Source: a virus
Lineage: Duplodnaviria; Heunggongvirae; Uroviricota; Caudoviricetes
Length of the DNA stretch: 33,901 nucleotides
IMG/VR virus record: IMGVR_UViG_2671180699_000001
Coordinates: 1 to 33,901 of that record
Reading direction: 5' to 3' (one strand)
Shown here: one piece after another, positions 1 through 13,459 of the stretch
Layout: each line of letters begins with the position of its first letter
Numbering within the stretch: position 1 is the first letter of the stretch
Made by a program: the position numbers and the translations under genes
The notes under the pieces: generated by a model
Told to the model about the DNA's origin: nothing
Database searches by the model: none
Seen by the model: the letters and a program-made list of their open reading frames with translations, nothing else

Positions 1-1284
1 TTACTTCTTCGCCTCTGCAACCACTTTACTACCCACGCCGCGGTTATTGTATTCCCACATGCGGTTGTAGTTAGTGTCATTCAGATTGCGCTGTATTTCG
101 TCGTTATCATCTACGCTGCCGGTATTACCCGCAAACGGACGATTAGAGATCACCGCATCGGCCCACGGTTTAGCCGTGTTAAAACCTTCGTTGATGGCGC
201 TATCACGGATCACCACCTGACCGTTGGTATTGGCATCAACATCCAGCGAGCGGCCCAGTTGCGCCACACCATCACCGAAAGCATTGAAACGGCTGTTTAC
301 GGCGAGGAAACCGTAGTAAATGTTGGACAGCGTAGCCGGTGCAAACACATACGCTTCTTGCTGAGTACGTGAGTTCACCACGCGGAATTCGGTGTTATCG
401 AACACCACTGCGCCGCGACCAGAAACGATATCCACATCCCCTTCAATGTAGCTGTTGGTCACCAGCGTACGCGGCTGACGATTCGTTTCCAGACGGTTCT
501 GCACACCGCTGTTGGTGACAAAGAAGGTGTTCTGACGACCGAGAATGTTAACGTTGTTAATCTGTACCTGGTCACCATCAGTACGCAGTGCCACCGCCGG
601 ATGGTTACCTGCATCTACGCTATCGCCCAGCGTGTTTTCGATGGTCAGATTTTGCAGTTGCAGGCCATTGTTTTGTGACCAGAAGACCGCAGAGCAGAGA
701 ACACCGATACTGTCGCTGCGTTTGCTCTGGCAGCTATCGTACATATACCACGCTGGTTTACCTGGCATATATTTGCCGCGCGGGTTGACGTCGTGACGCC
801 AGTCGGCAGGGCTCATGCCACCATCAAGGGAAAGCCCAATCTTCACATCAATCGGTTTTTCACCTGTACCGTACAGAGTAATTCCACCCGGAGCGGCAGG
901 GACATATACCGTTCCCTGATACTCACCAGGCATCACGGCAATATACTGGCGCTTGTTGGTACGCTTGATAATTGCCGCATCTACCGCCGCCTGAATCGTG
1001 GTATGCGTTACACCTTGAGTGCCCGCCGGGCCGACAACAAAGTCAGGTTGCGCAGGCAGGGTAATCGGGGAAGGATTCCACGCTGCAGCACCTGGTGTCA
1101 GGGATGCAAAATAGTGTTGAGCATCGAAATTCTGCGCTTCTTTTGCCGACAGAATCGGGCGAGAAGAGGTACCAGGCGCGGTTTGATCAGAAGGACGTTG
1201 ATCGGGCGGGGTTGAGCTACAGGCGGTCAGCGTCACGCCAAAAGCCAATGCCAGCGCCAGACGGGAAACTGAAAATGTGTTCAC
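1..1284 (-). CDS. ybhC: YbhC, pectinesterase-family outer-membrane lipoprotein (host gene flanking lambda attB)
   Basis: 427-aa ORF with lipoprotein signal (…LTACSS) and pectinesterase-like composition; ybhC is the known gal-side neighbour of lambda attB; apparent GTG start. Confidence 0.85.
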   Translation of the reverse strand: MNTFSVSRLALALAFGVTLTACSSTPPDQRPSDQTAPGTSSRPILSAKEAQNFDAQHYFASLTPGAAAWNPSPITLPAQPDFVVGPAGTQGVTHTTIQAAVDAAIIKRTNKRQYIAVMPGEYQGTVYVPAAPGGITLYGTGEKPIDVKIGLSLDGGMSPADWRHDVNPRGKYMPGKPAWYMYDSCQSKRSDSIGVLCSAVFWSQNNGLQLQNLTIENTLGDSVDAGNHPAVALRTDGDQVQINNVNILGRQNTFFVTNSGVQNRLETNRQPRTLVTNSYIEGDVDIVSGRGAVVFDNTEFRVVNSRTQQEAYVFAPATLSNIYYGFLAVNSRFNAFGDGVAQLGRSLDVDANTNGQVVIRDSAINEGFNTAKPWADAVISNRPFAGNTGSVDDNDEIQRNLNDTNYNRMWEYNNRGVGSKVVAEAKK

Positions 1285-1418: not shown

Positions 1419-2489
1419 TTATTTGATTTCAATTTTGTCCCACTCCCTGCCTCTGTCATCACGATACTGTGATGCCATGGTGTCCGACTTATGCCCGAGA
1501 AGATGTTGAGCAAACTTATCGCTTATCTGCTTCTCATAGAGTCTTGCAGACAAACTGCGCAACTCGTGAAAGGTAGGCGGATCCCCTTCGAAGGAAAGAC
1601 CTGATGCTTTTCGTGCGCGCATAAAATACCTTGATACTGTGCCGGATGAAAGCGGTTCGCGACGAGTAGATGCAATTATGGTTTCTCCGCCAAGAATCTC
1701 TTTGCATTTATCAAGTGTTTCCTTCATTGATATCCCGAGAGCATCAACATGCAATGTTGTTGGGATGGCAATTTTTACGCCTGTTTTGCTTTGCTCGACA
1801 TAAAGATATCCATCTACGATATCAGACCACTTCATTTCGCATAAATCACCAACTCGTTGCCCGGTAACAACAGCCAGTTCCATTGCAAGTCTGAGCCAAC
1901 ATGGTGATGATTCTGCTGCTTGATAAATTTTCAGGTATTCGTCAGCCGTAAGTCTTGATCTCCTTACCTCTGATTTTGCTGCGCGAGTGGCAGCGACAGG
2001 GTTTGTTGTTATATGGCCTTCAGCTATTGCCTCTCGGAATGCATCGCTCAGTGTTGATCTGATTAACTTGGCTGACGCCGCCTTGCCCTCGTCTATGTAT
2101 CCATTGAGCATTGCCGCAATTTCTTTTGTGGTGATGTCTTCAAGTGGAGCATCAGGCAGACCCCTCCTTATTGCTTTAATTTTGCTCATGTAATTTATGA
2201 GTGTCTTCTGCTTGATTCCTCTGCTGGCCAGGATTTTTTCGTAGCGATCAAGCCATGAATGTAACGTAACGGAATTATCACTGTTGATTCTCGCTGTCAG
2301 AGGCTTGTGTTTGTGTCCTGAAAATAACTCAATGTTGGCCTGTATAGCTTCAGTGATTGCGATTCGCCTGTCTCGGCCTAATCCAAACTCTTTACCCGTC
2401 CTTGGGTCCCTGTAGCAGTAATATCCATTGTTTCTTATATAAAGGTTAGGGGGTAAATCCCGGCGCTCATGACTTCGCCTTCTTCCCAT
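1419..2489 (-). CDS. int: Integrase, tyrosine recombinase (lambda Int type, 356 aa)
   Basis: Protein matches lambda Int along its length as recalled (MGRRRSHERRDLPPNLYIRNNGYY…); adjacent to P' arm. Confidence 0.97.
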   Translation of the reverse strand: MGRRRSHERRDLPPNLYIRNNGYYCYRDPRTGKEFGLGRDRRIAITEAIQANIELFSGHKHKPLTARINSDNSVTLHSWLDRYEKILASRGIKQKTLINYMSKIKAIRRGLPDAPLEDITTKEIAAMLNGYIDEGKAASAKLIRSTLSDAFREAIAEGHITTNPVAATRAAKSEVRRSRLTADEYLKIYQAAESSPCWLRLAMELAVVTGQRVGDLCEMKWSDIVDGYLYVEQSKTGVKIAIPTTLHVDALGISMKETLDKCKEILGGETIIASTRREPLSSGTVSRYFMRARKASGLSFEGDPPTFHELRSLSARLYEKQISDKFAQHLLGHKSDTMASQYRDDRGREWDKIEIK

Positions 2490-2685
2490 TTCTGATCCTC
2501 TTCAAAAGGCTACCTGTTACTGGTCGATTTAAGTCAACCTTTACCGCTGATTCGTGGAACAGATATTCTCTTCCATCCTTAACCGGAGGAGGGAATATCC
2601 TGCATTCGCGCACCCATCGACGAACTGTTTCAAGGCTTCTTGGGCGTCGCTGGCGAGCGTTCCACTCCTGAAGTGTCAAGTACAT
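2467..2685 (-). CDS. xis: Excisionase Xis (72 aa)
   Basis: MYLTLQEWNARQRRPRSLETVRRWVRE… as recalled for lambda Xis; overlaps int start as in lambda. Confidence 0.95.
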   Translation of the reverse strand: MYLTLQEWNARQRRPRSLETVRRWVRECRIFPPPVKDGREYLFHESAVKVDLNRPVTGSLLKRIRNGKKAKS

Positions 2686-2710
2686 CGCAAAGTCTCCGCA
2701 ATTACACGCA

Positions 2711-2733
2711 AGAAAAAACCGCCATCAGGCGGC
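2711..2733 (-). terminator. Rho-independent terminator (minus strand) upstream of xis
   Basis: Stem CCGCC / GGCGG with 4-nt loop, followed on the minus strand by TTTTTTCT. Confidence 0.55.
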
Positions 2734-2905
2734 TTGGTGTTCTTTCAGTTCTTCAATTCGAATATTGGTTACGTCTGCATGTGCTATCTGCGCCCACAGC
2801 ATCCAGTGGTCATAGCAGTCGCTGATGTTCTCGGCTTCGATAACTCTGTTGAATGGTTCTCCATTCTATTCACCTGTGACTCGGAAGTGCATTTATCATC
2901 TCCAT

Positions 2906-2958
2906 AAAAAAACTCGCCGTAGCGAGTTCAGATAAAAGAAATCCTCGTCAGTGCGAGG
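2906..2958 (-). terminator. Two tandem hairpin terminators (minus strand)
   Basis: Stems CTCGC/GCGAG and CCTCG/CGAGG, each followed by a T-rich run on the minus strand. Confidence 0.5.
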
Positions 2959-3132
2959 ATGCTGTTCATTGCTGCTATACACTTTTTTGCTCTCAACGTA
3001 AGCGGTAGCCCATTCTGTTGGGTTGGTGCAGTTGCTTTTAGGAAATGCTATTTACCCCTTAAATGTCGGCTGAAAGAGCTAAAATCCATGCAAAAAATTT
3101 ACGCAATTTTGTGTATTATTGTGCAGTAAGTA

Positions 3133-3735
3133 ATGAGCTATTTTCTGCGCAAAAAATGGATGGTAAATTTGTCCGGGTCAGGAAAAATTTTATGGGCGCT
3201 AAACATGAAAAAAGATTCGTATCCTTATTTGATTTGCATGACAGTTTCAGGGCTGATCTTTATTTTCCTTTTCTTCTGGTGGCGGGCAGATATCTACAGG
3301 GTCACGTTTCTTAATCAGAGTATATCCCACTATTACATTCTGTTTAGCATGGGAATAGCTTTTCTGTTATCTCTGTTTTGGGTTAAGAAGGGGATAGTAA
3401 AACAAAGCGGCTGGAAGAGTCTGTCAGCATACCTTAAGGTTTATGCAGGGATGTGCATATTTGCTGGATTTTTTCTGATTATACCCCTTACGACACTAAC
3501 TTATTTTTTGCCTGGAGAGACATCGTCTTACGTTGCACCGTATCGGTATACTTCCGGTAGTTCAAAAAGTTGTTCTGGAGCTGAGGTGGATGACCCCGAT
3601 CTACATGAGAATATTCGCATTTGCTATCCGTATGGCAATTATGAGTACGATAATATTATCTATGTTGAAAAGAAAATTAATATATTAGGTGCGGTAGTGA
3701 CATATGCACAGACCGCGCGTGATGATACTGAATGA
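3133..3735 (+). CDS. Hypothetical integral membrane protein (3 predicted TM helices plus about 60-aa soluble C-terminal domain); moron gene
   Basis: 200-aa ORF on the strand opposite to the early-left operon; AT-rich; hydrophobic segments LICMTVSGLIFIFLFFWW, ILFSMGIAFLLSLFWV, VYAGMCIFAGFFLIIPLTTL. Confidence 0.55.
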   Translation: MSYFLRKKWMVNLSGSGKILWALNMKKDSYPYLICMTVSGLIFIFLFFWWRADIYRVTFLNQSISHYYILFSMGIAFLLSLFWVKKGIVKQSGWKSLSAYLKVYAGMCIFAGFFLIIPLTTLTYFLPGETSSYVAPYRYTSGSSKSCSGAEVDDPDLHENIRICYPYGNYEYDNIIYVEKKINILGAVVTYAQTARDDTE

Positions 3736-3770
3736 TATAGTATATAGCGGGCAAGTTTTAGTTAATTTAT

Positions 3771-3800
3771 CGAGGTAATATAATTTACCTCGACTCGTTT
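3771..3800 (+). terminator. Hairpin terminator after the membrane-protein gene
   Basis: 8-bp stem CGAGGTAA / TTACCTCG with loop TATAAT, followed by a moderately T-rich tract. Confidence 0.4.
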
Positions 3801-3945
3801 GTTCTGGTATTAATATTTCGCTTTACGACCGATTTTTATCTGATGATATCATGCGGTTTTCATATACTGACTTACTGTCTTTTCTCCGTTAGCGATTTTC
3901 TCCTGCTCAGCGATGATTTTATCTTTGGCTTCTAGTTAATTTCGC

Positions 3946-4167
3946 TCACTTCGAACCTCTCTGTTTACTGATAAGCTCCAGATCTTGCTGGCAACTGGCA
4001 CAAGTCCGACAACCCTGAACGGCCAGTCGTCTTCGTTCATCTATCGGATCGCCACACTCACAACAATGAGTGGCAGATATAGCCTGGTGGTTCAGGCGGC
4101 GCATTTTTATTGCTGTGTTGCGCTGTAATTCTTCAATTTCTGATGCTGAATCAATTATGTCTGCCAT
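3946..4167 (-). CDS. TraR/DksA-family C4 zinc-finger protein (73 aa)
   Basis: CxxC-x17-CxxC (CECGDPIDERRRLAVQGCRTCASC) with TraR-like size and position in the early-left operon. Confidence 0.8.
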   Translation of the reverse strand: MADIIDSASEIEELQRNTAIKMRRLNHQAISATHCCECGDPIDERRRLAVQGCRTCASCQQDLELISKQRGSK

Positions 4168-4265
4168 CTTTCATTAATCCCTGAATTGTTGGTTAATACG
4201 CTTGAGGGTGAATGCGAATAATAAAAAAGGAGCCTGTAGCTCCCTGATGATTTTGCTTTTCATGT

Positions 4266-4749: not shown

Positions 4750-4910
4750 ACAGCTCCCCGTTTATTATTTATCTCCTCAGCCAGCCGCTGGGCTTTCAGC
4801 GGATTTCGGATAACAGAAAGGCCGGGAAATACCCAGCCTCGCTTTGTAACGGAGTAGACGAAAGTGATCGCGCCTACCCGGATATTATCGTGAGGATGCT
4901 TCATTGCCAT
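4722..4910 (-). CDS. Small early-left hypothetical protein (62 aa; lambda orf60a-like by size and position)
   Basis: ORF ends just before exo start. Confidence 0.45.
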
Positions 4911-5581
4911 TGCTCCCCATATACAAAACCAATTTCAGCCAGTGCCTCGTCCATTTTTTCGATGAACTCCGGCACCATCTCGTCAAAACTCGCCATGTAC
5001 TTTTCATTCCGCTCAACCACGACGTAATGCAGGCCTTCACGCTTCATGCGCGGGTCATAGTTGGCAAAGTACCAGGCATCTTTTCGCGTCACCCACATGC
5101 TGTACTGCACCTGGGCCATGTAAGCCGATTTTATTGCCTCGAAACCACCGAGCCGGAATTTCATGAAATCCCGGGAGGTAAACGGGCATTTCAGTTCAAG
5201 GCCGTTGCCGTCACTGCATAAACCATCGGGAGAGCAGGCGGTGCGCATATTTTCGTCGCGATAGATGATCGGGGATTCAGTAATATTCACGCCGGAAGTG
5301 AATTCAAACAGGGTTCTGGCGTCGTTCTCGTACTGTTTTCCCCAGGCCAGCGCCTTAGCATTAACTTCCGGAGCCACACCGGTGCAAACCTCAGCCAGCA
5401 GGGTGTGGAAGTAGGACATTTTCATGTCAGGCCACTTCTTTCCTGAGCGGGGCTTTGCTATCACGTTGTGAACTTCTGAAGCGGTGATGACGCCGAGCCG
5501 TAATTTGTGCCATGCATCATCCCCCTGTTCGACAACTCTCACGTCGATCCCGGTACGCTGCAGGATAATGTCCGGTGTCAT
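4901..5581 (-). CDS. exo: Lambda exonuclease (Red alpha, 226 aa)
   Basis: [15 protein letters not shown]…GEQWQ, as recalled for lambda Exo, same length. Confidence 0.97.
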
Positions 5582-6363
5582 GCTGCCACCTTCTGCTCAG
5601 TGGCTTTCTGTTTAAGGAATCCAAGAGCTTTCACTGCTTCGGCCTGTGTCAGTTCTGACGATGCGCGAATGTCGCGGCGAAATATCTGGGAACAGAGCGG
5701 CAATAAGTCGTCATCCCATGTTTTATCCAGGGCGATCAGCAGAGTGTTAATCTCCTGCATGGTTTCATCGTTAACCGGAGTGATGTCGCGTTCCGGCTGA
5801 CGTTCTGCAGTGTATGCAGTATTTTCGACAATGCGCTCGGCTTCATCCTTGTCATAGATACCAGCAAATCCGAAGGCCAGACGGGCACACTGAATCATGG
5901 CTTTATGCCGTAACATCCGTTTGGGATGCGACTGCCACGGCCCCGTGATTTCTCTGCCTTCGCGGGTTTTGAATGGTTCGCGGCGGCATTCATCCATCCA
6001 CTCGGTAACGCAGATCGGATGATTGCGGTCTTTGCGGTAAATCCGGCATGTGCAGGATTCGTTGTCCTGTTCAAAGTCCATGCCGTCAAACTGCTGGTTT
6101 TCGTTGATGATGCGGGACCAGCCATCAACGCCCACCACCGGAACGATGCCGTTCTGCTTATCAGGGAAGGCGTAAATTTCTTTCGTCCACGGATTAAGAC
6201 CGTACTGGTTGGCGACGATCAGCAATGCGATGAACTGCGCATCGCTGGCATCACCTTTAAATGCCGTCTGGCGAAGAGTGGTGATCAGTTCCTGTGGGTC
6301 GACAGAATCCATGCCGACTCGTTCAGCCAGCTTCCCAGCCAGCGTTGCGAGTGCTGTACTCAT
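5578..6363 (-). CDS. bet: Bet single-strand annealing protein (Red beta, 261 aa)
   Basis: [37 protein letters not shown]…, as recalled for lambda Bet; ATGA overlap with exo. Confidence 0.97.
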
Positions 6364-6368
6364 CCGTT

Positions 6369-6665
6369 TTATACCTCTGAATCAATATCAACCTGGTGGT
6401 GAGCAATGGTTTCAACCATGTACCGGATGTGTTCTGCCATGCGCTCCTGAAACTCAACATCGTCATCAAACGCACGGGTAATGGCTTTTTTGCTGACCCC
6501 GTGGCGTTGCAAATGATCGATGCATAGCGATTCAAACAGGTGCTGGGGCAGGCCTTTTTCCATGTCGTCTGCCAGTTCTGCCTCTTTCTCTTCACGGGCG
6601 ATCTGCTGGTAGTGACGCGCCCAGCTCTGAGCCTCAAGACGATCCTGAATGTAATAAGCGTTCAT
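6369..6665 (-). CDS. gam: Gam, RecBCD inhibitor (98-aa short form)
   Basis: [21 protein letters not shown]…VDIDSEV, as recalled for lambda GamS; an in-frame TAA about 15 codons upstream excludes the long form. Confidence 0.93.
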
Positions 6666-7428: not shown

Positions 7429-7809
7429 TCAGTCAGCCCAACCTGATTTCGAGTTTATTTGGGTTTCTGACATTGTGTATTTCTTAATCGTGTCATCGTT
7501 AAAAAGAATAGTAAGTTCTTTTTTCGTACCGTTCGTTCCATTATGGAATAATCCATAGAATGGAATAAAAGTGGTGCCATTAACTTTTACTTTTGCAAAG
7601 GCGTACTTCCAGATCTCGTTTCCACTGTCAGTATATGAAACAGCATCAGGAGAACCAAAGTAAGATTTAACCTCATTCTTGGTTGTTTTACCTTCCTGAA
7701 GTTTAGACTGGACACTAATTTCAGTTTCATTTTTGAGTTGCTGGTTGCCTGAAGAAGCACACCCAGCCAATACAGATGCCATCATGGCAGCGATTAGGAT
7801 TTTTCTCAT
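7429..7809 (-). CDS. Lipoprotein (126 aa) encoded downstream of cI in the rexAB position
   Basis: Signal peptide with lipobox LAGC (MRKILIAAMMASVLAGCASS); AT-rich; co-oriented with and immediately downstream of the repressor gene. Confidence 0.8.
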   Translation of the reverse strand: MRKILIAAMMASVLAGCASSGNQQLKNETEISVQSKLQEGKTTKNEVKSYFGSPDAVSYTDSGNEIWKYAFAKVKVNGTTFIPFYGLFHNGTNGTKKELTILFNDDTIKKYTMSETQINSKSGWAD

Positions 7810-8038: not shown

Positions 8039-8728
8039 TTAACCATGCTTCCTGTACGTCTGCGGCATGCTTCCAATGACCTTACCGAATATGAACACCC
8101 GGTTCATCTCGTCTTTCTCGATCGGGTCCCACGGCGAGTAGCTCTTGTTATCAGAGATAACCAGCAGCTTATCCTTCATCATTTGAAGACGTTTTACATG
8201 GGCAGTGTCGTCGTACAGAAACGCATAGATGCCATCACCGTCGAAAGATTTAACAGTGATATCAACGAACAGCAGGTCACCTGGTTCGATCGTCCCTGAC
8301 ATGCTGTCACCTCGCACGTTAATGATGCGGATATTTTCCGCCTTCCTGCCATCGAACATGTGACGAGCATCGTCAAACGAGTACTCAACCGAGCGTAGAA
8401 CTTCTACAAACTCACGGTTGATTACACCTGGCCCGGCACTGACTTCTATATCAAGAACGTCAATTTTGAAGTATTTGGAATGGCTGACAGTTGATTGTAT
8501 TGGTTGCACTGTACTGTCTGACATATTTCCAACGCCAGAAGATAACCATTCTGCGCGCACACCCAAAGCGTTCGCGATCTCCACGATTTTAGTTGTTTGG
8601 TTAGCTTTCCCTGTTTCGATTTTCTGAATAGCAGCCTGGCTAACCCCGACCAAATCCCCAAGCGCCTTTTGTGTAAGGCCTCGCGCTAATCTGGCTTCTT
8701 TAAGTCTTTCTGAGAGTGTTGTTTTCAT
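8039..8728 (-). CDS. cI: CI-type prophage repressor (HTH_XRE N-terminal domain plus S24 LexA-like peptidase domain, 229 aa)
   Basis: HTH (LTQKALGDLVGVSQAAIQKIE), Ala-Gly cleavage site (SAGPG), catalytic Ser (GDSMSG) and Lys (HVKRL). Confidence 0.93.
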   Translation of the reverse strand: MKTTLSERLKEARLARGLTQKALGDLVGVSQAAIQKIETGKANQTTKIVEIANALGVRAEWLSSGVGNMSDSTVQPIQSTVSHSKYFKIDVLDIEVSAGPGVINREFVEVLRSVEYSFDDARHMFDGRKAENIRIINVRGDSMSGTIEPGDLLFVDITVKSFDGDGIYAFLYDDTAHVKRLQMMKDKLLVISDNKSYSPWDPIEKDEMNRVFIFGKVIGSMPQTYRKHG

Positions 8729-12040: not shown

Positions 12041-13459
12041 TTAGAAAATAATGTTTGCTATATCCGAGATAGCATTTAAAGAACCTCTGTGGTCACTTCC
12101 TGTTTTAGGTAAAATATAGGAATATCGAGGGTCTTCATTATATGTTAACTTCCAGTGTTTTCCATCGCTTGACGCACTGAAACCTAAGTCCTTTAAATTT
12201 CTTTGTGTTGCGCTATCCATGCTTCTGTAACCTGTTAAAGTCCTTTTAAGTAATTGGCGGCGACTCTCGGTTTCTTTATTGTATTCATTATTGGCAATTA
12301 GGGATGATAAGATATGGTAGCTTCTACCAAATTCATTTTTATTTTTTATGGCAGTTTTTAGTGCGTCAATAATTATATTTTTGATTTCTCCATCAAAAAA
12401 ATCAGTCTCTTCACCAGCATTAAGCACAATGCTTCCTTGGGCTGAAGCTTGTGATTGAAGAGTGCGTACTCTGTGCTCTAAAGAGGAGATCTTATGCTTA
12501 AGATCTTCTATTTGGTCATCTTTCGCAACATTATCGGCTTCGTAAAGCGCCATCAGTTCGCGTGTGTATTCTCCTCTTTCTTTGAGTGAGTTAATAGAGT
12601 CTTTCGTTTTTCTGGTTTGTATCTCACTCCATCCACTATCTGAGACAGGAGCCATTGTAGTCGTAGCTCTTACAACATCATCAAATAACTCATCTTCAAA
12701 TTCTTTTGCGGTTTTCTCACCACGGCGATAAAAACTGATATTTTGACCCCGTGGCCAATAGATACCAACAGCACCAGCATAGGCATTTTTAGCATTTGTC
12801 TCATTTTTTAGCTTAATAGAAAATAGTCTATTGCTAGGCTCAATTAATACATGTGCTAATCCGCATACCTTTCTTGCAAGGCGTTCTGGGATGATATTGT
12901 GAGCATGTTCATTAAAAAAATACTTGGAGCTAACGTATATTATTGGTAGTCTGTTGTCAGTTTCACCATTTATAACTTTAGCTGCTATATTTAAATGTTC
13001 ATCAGTATCATCTAAGGAATGAGGTTCGACTGACACCTTGAAAATATCATCAAGACCACCAGAAAATTTATCAATCAATCTCATAACAACTAATGGTTTC
13101 TTAGGTTGCGGGGCTAGATAAGCTGCATCTTGGCTTACAACGCTAGATTCCACCTGAATCCACATGGTATCAGTTTTGAGATTTTTATTAATTGAAATAT
13201 CTGTTACCCATTTGTGTGGCTCAGATATTTTCGAATACCTAAAACAGCCTAAACTAGTATCTTTGTTTTTATAAGTTATTATATCAATTCTTTCATTTTT
13301 AGACTCTATGAAGTACTCCTCGCTTTTATAATCACATACTAATTGTGCTGGAATAAAAGTTGTATGTGGTGAGTCGTTTACCCAAGAAAAACATTCATTA
13401 AAGATCTCAGCTAGAGATGTGGAGTTTGAAACATAAAAACCAGTTGAGAAATATTTCAT
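12041..13459 (-). CDS. Orphan 472-aa protein in the ren-nin insertion; function unknown, candidate anti-phage/abortive-infection protein
   Basis: Long uninterrupted ORF on the strand opposite to the replication/nin operon; low GC; central coiled-coil (EDLKHKISSLEHRVRTLQSQ); no TM helices, no Walker A seen. Confidence 0.75.
   Translation of the reverse strand: MKYFSTGFYVSNSTSLAEIFNECFSWVNDSPHTTFIPAQLVCDYKSEEYFIESKNERIDIITYKNKDTSLGCFRYSKISEPHKWVTDISINKNLKTDTMWIQVESSVVSQDAAYLAPQPKKPLVVMRLIDKFSGGLDDIFKVSVEPHSLDDTDEHLNIAAKVINGETDNRLPIIYVSSKYFFNEHAHNIIPERLARKVCGLAHVLIEPSNRLFSIKLKNETNAKNAYAGAVGIYWPRGQNISFYRRGEKTAKEFEDELFDDVVRATTTMAPVSDSGWSEIQTRKTKDSINSLKERGEYTRELMALYEADNVAKDDQIEDLKHKISSLEHRVRTLQSQASAQGSIVLNAGEETDFFDGEIKNIIIDALKTAIKNKNEFGRSYHILSSLIANNEYNKETESRRQLLKRTLTGYRSMDSATQRNLKDLGFSASSDGKHWKLTYNEDPRYSYILPKTGSDHRGSLNAISDIANIIF

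Follow-up and report, generated by a model that had tools for sequence, protein, structure and literature searches.

A predicted membrane-protein cassette of the lambdoid exo-xis region and its relatives in the P2 anti-phage hotspot

The window of this study, that is, the whole stretch of DNA that was analysed, comprises the 33,901 nucleotides of the caudoviricete record IMGVR_UViG_2671180699_000001 (positions 1 to 33,901). It corresponds to a lambdoid prophage of the 434/mEp332 type that has inserted at the attachment site of lambda (ybhC). Between its xis and exo genes lies a small cassette whose only conserved gene, contained in an open frame of 200 codons on the + strand (3133..3735), is the subject of this text. 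The original prediction, made from the letters of the window and a list of its reading frames, took this frame for a moron that encodes a 200-residue inner-membrane protein, possibly one that excludes superinfecting phages. It was already known that the gene is annotated as a hypothetical membrane protein and that its P2 relatives have been tabulated as frequent hotspot cargo. The new observation is the link between the two: the reading frame of the 434 exo-xis region belongs with homologues, at 50-78% identity to the window protein, that recur in the anti-phage hotspot of P2-like prophages.

The cassette, its gene and its signals

The left end of the window is made up of leftward (minus-strand) genes. 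Its first gene, ybhC (1..1284), is followed by int (1419..2489), xis (2467..2685) and a 55-codon reading frame (2725..2892) that separates xis from the cassette; on the other side of the cassette lie a TraR/DksA zinc-finger gene (3946..4167), exo (4901..5581), bet (5578..6363) and gam (6369..6665). The frame at 3133..3735 is thus enclosed by leftward genes and antisense to the int-xis and early-left transcription unit, as originally described. Over the region 2700-4200, identity amounts to 99.6% with phage mEp332 and to 97.9% with phages 434 and 2B8. Lambda, HK630, DE3 and other close relatives match the flanks only, with ea8.5/ea22 filling the gap; the locus therefore corresponds to the variable exo-xis accessory region, and the cassette stands in place of lambda ea8.5, between xis and the zinc-finger gene. 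The lambda genes of this slot (ea8.5, ea22, orf61, orf63, orf60a and orf73) are leftward, read from pL and encode small soluble products, whereas the window gene, on the opposite strand and apparently with signals of its own, codes for a membrane protein. The AT-rich patch of the original prediction is also recovered, with a GC content of 0.34-0.41 over 2851-3900 versus 0.44-0.53 in both flanks. The leftward boundary of the inserted cassette is marked by two terminator-like hairpins on the minus strand (2910..2960), the second of which (2941..2960) has the same position as t-L4 in the phage 434 record M60848.

The open frame is longer than the gene that it contains. All 23 aligned homologues share Met25 (ATG 3205), while the 24 codons upstream are unconserved. 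Apart from the near-identical copies of E. coli and Shigella, most members of the family start at this position and are 169-180 amino acids long. In E. coli PSJ-42, two stops interrupt this extension (3158 G>A, giving TAG, and 3181 G>T, giving TGA); the 176 codons downstream of them are intact and are annotated as a protein of 176 amino acids. Since, in addition, a conserved promoter element lies inside the extension (see below), the real coding sequence is 3205..3735 (+ strand, 176 amino acids plus stop), in keeping with conservation, the alignment and the ratio of nonsynonymous to synonymous substitution rates (dN/dS). The in-frame extension of 24 codons (3133..3204, + strand) is most likely noncoding and made up of the promoter and the 5' untranslated region. 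The length of 200 residues that had been predicted from ATG 3133 must thus be given up in favour of a conserved protein of 176, and the TTG start of the phage 434 annotation (188 amino acids) is ruled out on the same grounds. Annotators have disagreed about this gene, giving it 200, 188 or 176 amino acids, splitting it into two fragments in phage 2B8 or reading another frame in M60848, in which 'ORF-22+' begins at the equivalent of window position 3192 and does not follow the conserved frame.

The pattern of substitutions is that of a translated gene. Among eight near-identical copies, the 72 nucleotides of the extension have 7 variable sites and positions 3205-3732 have 16, of which 12 fall on third codon positions. 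The dN/dS values in comparison with the P2-borne copies are 0.08-0.16, with dS saturated. These observations argue strongly for intense purifying selection on the gene. The situation is different for a second, 56-codon reading frame located upstream on the same strand (2959..3129), which is annotated in phage 434 as a 'putative membrane protein' (CPT_434_35) and also in mEp332. This frame is shifted in PSJ-42, 16 of its 171 sites are variable, PGAP does not call it and no family match was found for it; moreover, it lies outside the DNA common to the P2 cassettes and shares sequence with the terminator hairpins of the minus strand. This frame is thus unlikely to be a gene, and its frameshift, its variability, its absence from the P2 cassettes and the lack of a PGAP call rule it out as an operon partner.

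An extended -10 element, TGgTAAATT, is found at 3161..3169 (+ strand), within the supposed N-terminal extension. The corresponding pattern, TG(G/A)TAA(A/T/G)TT, precedes the ATG by 44-48 nt in lambdoid, P2-borne (E. coli, Salmonella, E. hormaechei), Cedecea and Citrobacter copies; in spite of the saturation of dS, it is kept in 8 of the 16 upstream regions listed, or 7 of 15 independent contexts, and the K. michiganensis copy has TACAAT at the -10 position. Positions 3161-3169 show no substitution among the eight near-identical copies. A weak -35-like hexamer, TTTTCT (3141..3146, + strand), can be recognized by its conservation 17 nt upstream of the -10 hexamer, and its TTT core is invariant in the upstream alignment. 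A strict two-hexamer consensus scan did not list the promoter at 3161..3169. Judged by its sequence, the cassette carries a putative extended -10 sigma-70 promoter.

Upstream of this promoter, ~50-70 nt before the presumed transcription start (near 3176), lie the direct repeats TTGTGTA-tta-TTGTGCA (3109..3125, + strand), which have a 10-bp spacing and one mismatch between the copies. The P2-borne copies have two or three exact TTGTGCA repeats with the same 10-bp period, 80-110 nt before the ATG (5895-5921 in locus L006, 5895-5911 in L026 and 5240-5266 in L027). The annotators of phage 434 flagged window positions 3109..3122 as a CII site (TTGYN6TTGY), by pattern only, and the 17-nt repeat pattern has at least two matches in 11 of 100 shuffles. 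Since the repeats are better kept in P2-like prophages, control of the promoter by lambda CII is judged unlikely.

On the downstream side, the hairpin TCGAGGTAA-tataat-TTACCTCGA followed by CTCGTTTGTT (3770..3803, + strand) is a predicted intrinsic terminator of moderate strength. The hairpin proper (3770..3793) has a 9-bp stem and a 6-nt loop, starts 35 nt past the stop codon and is followed on the + strand by the T-rich tail CTCGTTTGTT, in agreement with the downstream hairpin that had been attributed to the cassette. Terminator-like sites are in excess in the region (8 versus 1.4 expected). The only substitution that the hairpin has in PSJ-42 (3773 A>G) retains a G-T pair, and a related hairpin is found downstream of the E. 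coli P2-borne copy.

Protein architecture and family

The Kyte-Doolittle hydropathy profile has three putative transmembrane (TM) segments, corresponding in the 200-residue numbering to residues 31-50 (TM1, nt 3223-3282), 66-83 (TM2, nt 3328-3381) and 105-126 (TM3, nt 3445-3510). The AlphaFold2 model obtained from a 25-sequence alignment has three long helices followed by a five-strand beta domain, with a mean predicted local distance difference test (pLDDT) of 87.7, and the C-terminal domain modeled alone reaches a pLDDT of 88.2. The three TM helices and the small soluble C-terminal domain of the original prediction are therefore recovered by both approaches. The N-terminus of the conserved protein is MKKDSY and the first loop contains the motif WWRxxIYRVTFL, with conserved W, I, R, T, F and L. 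The loop between TM2 and TM3 has five lysines and no acidic residue (+5/0), and the C-terminal 72 residues are hydrophilic, with 6 basic and 12 acidic residues (+6/-12). From the positive-inside rule, this Lys-rich second loop and acidic C-terminal domain suggest a three-pass inner-membrane protein whose N-terminus and second loop would be cytoplasmic, and whose first loop and C-terminal domain would face the periplasm. The topology prediction that had been proposed as a check thus gives three TM segments and places the beta domain (nt 3511-3714, + strand, ~70 residues) in the periplasm. The part left in the cytoplasm would then consist of ~6 N-terminal residues and a loop of ~20 residues.

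Two cysteines (nt 3571-3573 and 3622-3624) are invariant in the 23-sequence alignment, are kept in the most distant full-length members (P0106, P0119 and P0125) and are located at opposite ends of one predicted beta-hairpin; it is reasonable to suppose that they form a periplasmic disulfide. The TM segments, the positive-inside rule, the cysteines and the AlphaFold2 model are all consistent with a location in the inner membrane and periplasm. An alternative reading of the N-terminal 'LIC' as a lipoprotein signal was rejected, as it does not fit a lipobox and its cysteine is not conserved. The C-terminal domain, with its motifs SCSGAxVDDPDL, IRICYPxGNY and LGAVVTYA, is the best conserved part of the protein (mean identity 0.70 versus 0.34-0.53 in the TM helices), which points to a conserved host partner rather than to variable phage proteins.

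The family resembles little else. No significant profile or structural match was found in Pfam-A, NCBIfam or the solved folds, no PADLOC-DB v2.0.0 family matched at E <= 1, and the only match among the PHROGs is phrog_1416, of 'unknown function'. When 50,697 phage records were searched with tblastn, matches were found only in 434, 2B8 and mEp332. In these records and the PHROGs, no homology was detected to P22 SieA/SieB, HK97 gp15, T4 Imm/Sp, phi80/N15 Cor, T5 Llp or P1 Sim, the presence of those reference genomes in the collection being unchecked. Membership in the GtrA-like, holin or colicin-immunity families was considered and has no Pfam support. A profile search of 1.84 billion representatives recovered only 61 clusters, with the same architecture throughout, and the motifs stay invariant in family members of as little as 35-45% identity. 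An odd match of this profile to a 3,074-aa repeat protein (P0123) covers the Cys-containing stretch only, has no meaningful Pfam counterpart and was taken as noise. A scan of genome contigs with a peptide pattern, which is narrow, found only 7 loci. To judge from these searches, the proteins constitute a small orphan family of the Enterobacterales.

Distribution in lambdoid prophages, the P2 hotspot and chromosomes

Lambdoid orthologues that are 98-100% identical occupy the same exo-xis slot in phages 434 (CPT_434_36), mEp332 (XSB40999) and 2B8 and in the prophage Sp3 of the Sakai strain (ECs_0804), and are annotated merely as 'putative membrane protein' or 'hypothetical protein'. The prophages that carry them have either lambda-type int/xis at ybhC (the window, O157:H7 Sp3, O104:H4) or torI-type excisionases elsewhere. 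Among 5,426 complete E. coli genomes, 905 (~17%, or about one sixth) have at least 80% of the 1-kb region of the cassette covered; O157:H7 and O104:H4 are among the carriers of this DNA. The gene is intact in the decayed prophages of PSJ-42 and Sakai (Sp3), in which int, bet and exo are pseudogenes. The PSJ-42 locus (L023, NZ_AP027652 1777160-1786144) is a prophage remnant adjoining torI, in which the intact 176-aa gene is accompanied by an IS4 transposase gene with a frameshift, a broken copy of exo and a fragment of a tail-fibre-assembly gene. Another copy, 99% identical, lies together with a lambda-type exo on a 3.5-kb contig (JARKOR010000073.1) assigned to a 'Candidatus Nanosynbacter' metagenome-assembled genome; this contig is almost certainly mis-binned E. 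coli prophage DNA.

The second habitat of the gene is the P2-like prophage. Homologues in these prophages are 78% (E. coli), 71% and 59% (Salmonella), 58% (E. hormaechei), 56% (K. michiganensis) and 50% (metagenome) identical to the window protein. The portal gene gpQ comes immediately before them, on the same strand, and the replication gene gpA follows; often they are the sole cargo, and this residence is observed in six lineages (loci L005-7, L014-16, L019-21 and L026-28). The window and the Salmonella P2 cassettes are similar at the DNA level from ~3072-3109 (~100-130 nt before the ATG) to the stop codon or just past it; as this similarity spans the promoter through the stop, promoter and coding sequence move together. 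In the K. michiganensis P2-like prophages (L019-L021, 2281..5623), the family gene stands beside genes for a 790-aa AAA_16 protein and a 279-aa protein on the other strand, a pair that may be a separate defence candidate.

The gpA-gpQ locus of P2-like prophages, close to cos, is an anti-phage hotspot that harbors old and tin in P2 (Rousset et al. 2022, PMC9122126). Table S5B of the same study lists as System #4 a single protein without Pfam domain, described as '3 TM', with 470 occurrences in the E. coli P2 hotspot (PMC9122126). This protein is 52% identical to the window protein over 168 residues (E 5e-57), has the same length and three TM segments and contains the motifs SCSGAxVDDPDL...ICYPxGxY...LGAVVTYA, a resemblance that assigns both to the same protein family. 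Their locations differ, as System #4 belongs to P2-like myovirus prophages, next to cos, and the window copy belongs to the lambdoid exo-xis region. In frequency, the sister lineage of the window gene thus ranks fourth among the cargoes of the P2 anti-phage hotspot, although it has no name, domain or assigned function.

More distant homologues (35-56% identity to the window protein) are found at non-phage sites. Syntenic chromosomal copies stand beside a GGDEF gene in five Enterobacter species, and other copies occur in Klebsiella (at a bgl-type phosphotransferase system (PTS) operon), Serratia (after ptsG), Citrobacter (near rstB-tus), Cedecea and the megaplasmids of Pantoea. In Serratia marcescens (L029, 3333-5510) the homologue directly follows ptsG, and in Klebsiella sp. 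(L011/L037) it is divergent from the adjoining bgl-type PTS EIIBCA gene. The Serratia record (NZ_CP042515.1) is labeled 'plasmid pE28_003', but this linear 67-kb sequence with mltG, tmk, holB, ptsG and mntR resembles part of a chromosome more than a plasmid.

Taken with the setting of the window copy, this distribution gives good support to the original view of the gene as a moron. The slot is filled differently in related phages, ea8.5 being replaced; the cassette has a distinct, low GC content, the opposite orientation and a predicted terminator hairpin; it recurs in P2-like prophages and survives prophage decay. The comparison of these loci makes a solid case for an autonomous cassette that passes between unrelated types of temperate phage and outlasts the decay of the prophage.

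Possible functions

The function that seems most likely to us, although with somewhat less than an even chance, is superinfection exclusion at the level of the envelope, at the step of DNA entry. It is favored by the probable periplasmic working surface of the protein, its negligible cytoplasmic mass and its residence in two loci known for exclusion genes. In this scenario, the cassette, with its own promoter, coding sequence (3205..3735) and terminator, would be expressed independently of the early-left operon, presumably also in the lysogen. The product would be a three-pass inner-membrane protein whose conserved first loop and disulfide-stabilised beta-barrel face the periplasm, where they would bind a conserved host envelope component needed by incoming phages to pass the periplasm and the inner membrane. 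A candidate class of targets is formed by the PTS permeases that serve as conduits, namely ManYZ in the case of lambda and 434 and PtsG in that of HK97, and the binding of such a component would block the entry of the genome.

A block at the inner-membrane step of siphovirus DNA entry has precedents, among them some that concern the lambda/434 group itself. The injection of HK97 is said to use PtsG, and the moron protein gp15 reportedly excludes HK97 (work attributed to Cumby et al.). Both gp15 and P22 SieA are reportedly located in the inner membrane and act alone at genome entry. Like the window protein, they are small, prophage-encoded products of moron or accessory-locus genes predicted or reported to reside in the inner membrane, but in the tblastn and PHROGs searches they have no detectable sequence similarity to it, and the window protein differs by its three TM segments and its predicted periplasmic beta-barrel. 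DicB, from the cryptic prophage Qin, is a cytoplasmic 62-aa cell-division inhibitor that acts through MinC. It is likewise a small prophage-encoded protein that protects the host by disabling the inner-membrane DNA conduit of siphoviruses, though unrelated to the window protein in sequence and location. DNA entry of lambda and 434 needs ManYZ, the route blocked by DicB, and the work describing this block also cites HK97 gp15 and P22 SieA as exclusion proteins (PMC6832061). SNIPE, an inner-membrane nuclease, is found in association with ManYZ and the tape measure protein where the phage genome is injected (PMC13190303). It is a constitutive inner-membrane defence protein whose nuclease domain cuts DNA, in contrast with the window protein, which has no enzymatic domain and hardly any cytoplasmic mass.

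A more specific version of the exclusion scenario can be imagined, in which the family would be a new class of single-protein exclusion factors exchanged horizontally between lambdoid and P2-like prophages. The disulfide-bonded beta-barrel would clamp PTS EIIC permeases (ManYZ, PtsG) on their periplasmic side, or another conserved conduit of the inner membrane, and close the route that siphovirus tape measure proteins use for genome injection, and the chromosomal neighbours of ptsG and bgl genes would represent the ancestral form captured by phages. The adjacency to PTS EIIC genes is suggestive of a permease link, but weakly so, since it was noticed post hoc and concerns 2 of ~6 chromosomal contexts. 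We regard this elaborated version as unlikely in its entirety.

Several observations weigh against the exclusion function in general. The protein has no similarity in sequence or fold to known exclusion or defence proteins in the tblastn, PHROGs, PADLOC and fold searches. The family is absent from the cloned and tested systems of Table S2 of Rousset et al. (PMC9122126) and was not found in the part of the Vassallo 2022 supplements covered here; no published test of it, no paper citing its accessions or ECs0804 and no literature on their function was found. The P2 hotspot also carries cargo unrelated to defence, such as StbA/StbB, which correspond to System #1 (PMC9122126). The putative promoter is weak by consensus and escaped the strict scan, and the AT-rich patch could be open to silencing by H-NS. 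Finally, homologues with 42-56% identity are stable chromosomal genes outside prophages, or reside on Pantoea megaplasmids, which suggests a cellular role that is not tied to phages.

This last point leads to the most serious competing explanation, that the protein has a function in the host envelope unrelated to phages and is carried as a lysogenic-conversion gene that raises host fitness. It could be, for example, an orphan immunity protein against a periplasm-acting bacteriocin or a toxin of contact-dependent inhibition (CDI) or type VI secretion systems (T6SS), or it could modulate envelope stress or the activity of an inner-membrane transporter. Three-TM inner-membrane immunity proteins are indeed known for pore-forming colicins. 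The stable syntenic copies of the five Enterobacter species agree with such a role, as do the single-copy genes of Klebsiella, Cedecea, Citrobacter, Serratia and Pantoea, which have no phage genes nearby, the PTS permease genes that adjoin the gene in two genera and the mixed cargo of the P2 hotspot. The high conservation of the periplasmic domain also argues for a cellular partner over fast-evolving phage proteins. Yet no toxin or partner gene is consistently adjacent, no similarity to known immunity families was found in Pfam or NCBIfam, and the mobile branch of the family occupies two prophage loci in which exclusion genes are known to occur and persists where prophages decay. Thus, a role in the host envelope is a real possibility, but it appears somewhat less likely to us than exclusion at DNA entry.

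Alternatively, the protein could be a membrane effector of abortive infection, inert until an infection cue, upon which it would depolarise the inner membrane or make it permeable and so kill the infected cell. Transmembrane proteins of the hotspot have usually been read as suicide effectors (Rousset et al. 2022, PMC9122126), and the single-gene cargo of the P2 hotspot would suit this reading. Nevertheless, with its negligible cytoplasmic mass the protein could hardly sense phage components inside the cell, no partner gene is present that could act as a sensor, and constitutive chromosomal copies are tolerated in several genera. Abortive infection seems improbable under these circumstances. 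Even less credit can be given to a role in the life cycle of the phage itself, either as antisense transcription, activated by CII or otherwise, that would damp int/xis or exo-xis, or as a protein involved in the timing of lysis or the release of DNA. The antisense position of the gene relative to the early-left operon and the CII-type pattern noted by the 434 annotators at 3109..3122 are compatible with it, and the conserved repeats with 10-bp spacing suggest regulated rather than purely constitutive expression. However, the CII match is merely a pattern of a kind that also arises in shuffled sequences, and repeats and promoter travel into P2-like prophages, where they are best kept without a lambda-type CII or pL operon. 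In addition, chromosomal copies occur without any phage, and the strong selection at the protein level means that the product matters and not the transcription alone. Lastly, a chance reading frame in AT-rich spacer DNA, which could be suspected from the lack of a database function and the disagreement of the annotators about the start, is refuted for practical purposes by the invariant motifs at 35-45% identity, the dN/dS of 0.08-0.16 and the confidently predicted fold.

With its start codon placed and its promoter and topology predicted, an anonymous hypothetical gene becomes the object of a cheap and well-delimited test that requires a single 0.75-kb fragment. If superinfection exclusion at DNA entry is the correct reading, the proteins would add a new family to the few single-gene exclusion factors that act at the level of the envelope, and they would be relevant to the choice of therapeutic or typing phages for E. 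coli, Salmonella and Klebsiella lysogens. If the function proves to be another one, the family would serve as a warning that residence in a hotspot does not suffice to identify defence genes.

Two other genes of the same prophage have features of accessory cargo. The first (7429..7809, minus strand) encodes a predicted lipoprotein of 126 amino acids with the signal ...VLAGC, lies in an AT-rich patch (GC 0.36-0.41) and has a weak BamE-like Pfam match (E 1.6e-4) as well as a match to phrog_3135, of unknown function. It is directly downstream of the CI-type repressor gene (8039..8728, minus strand), in the slot occupied by rexAB in lambda, and probably represents another moron that is active in the lysogen. 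The second (12041..13459, minus strand) is a reading frame of 472 codons, opposite to the adjoining + strand frames and without a Pfam match; residues 83-334 of its product match the PADLOC candidate HEC-07 (E 1e-9), and it may represent a defence-type moron.

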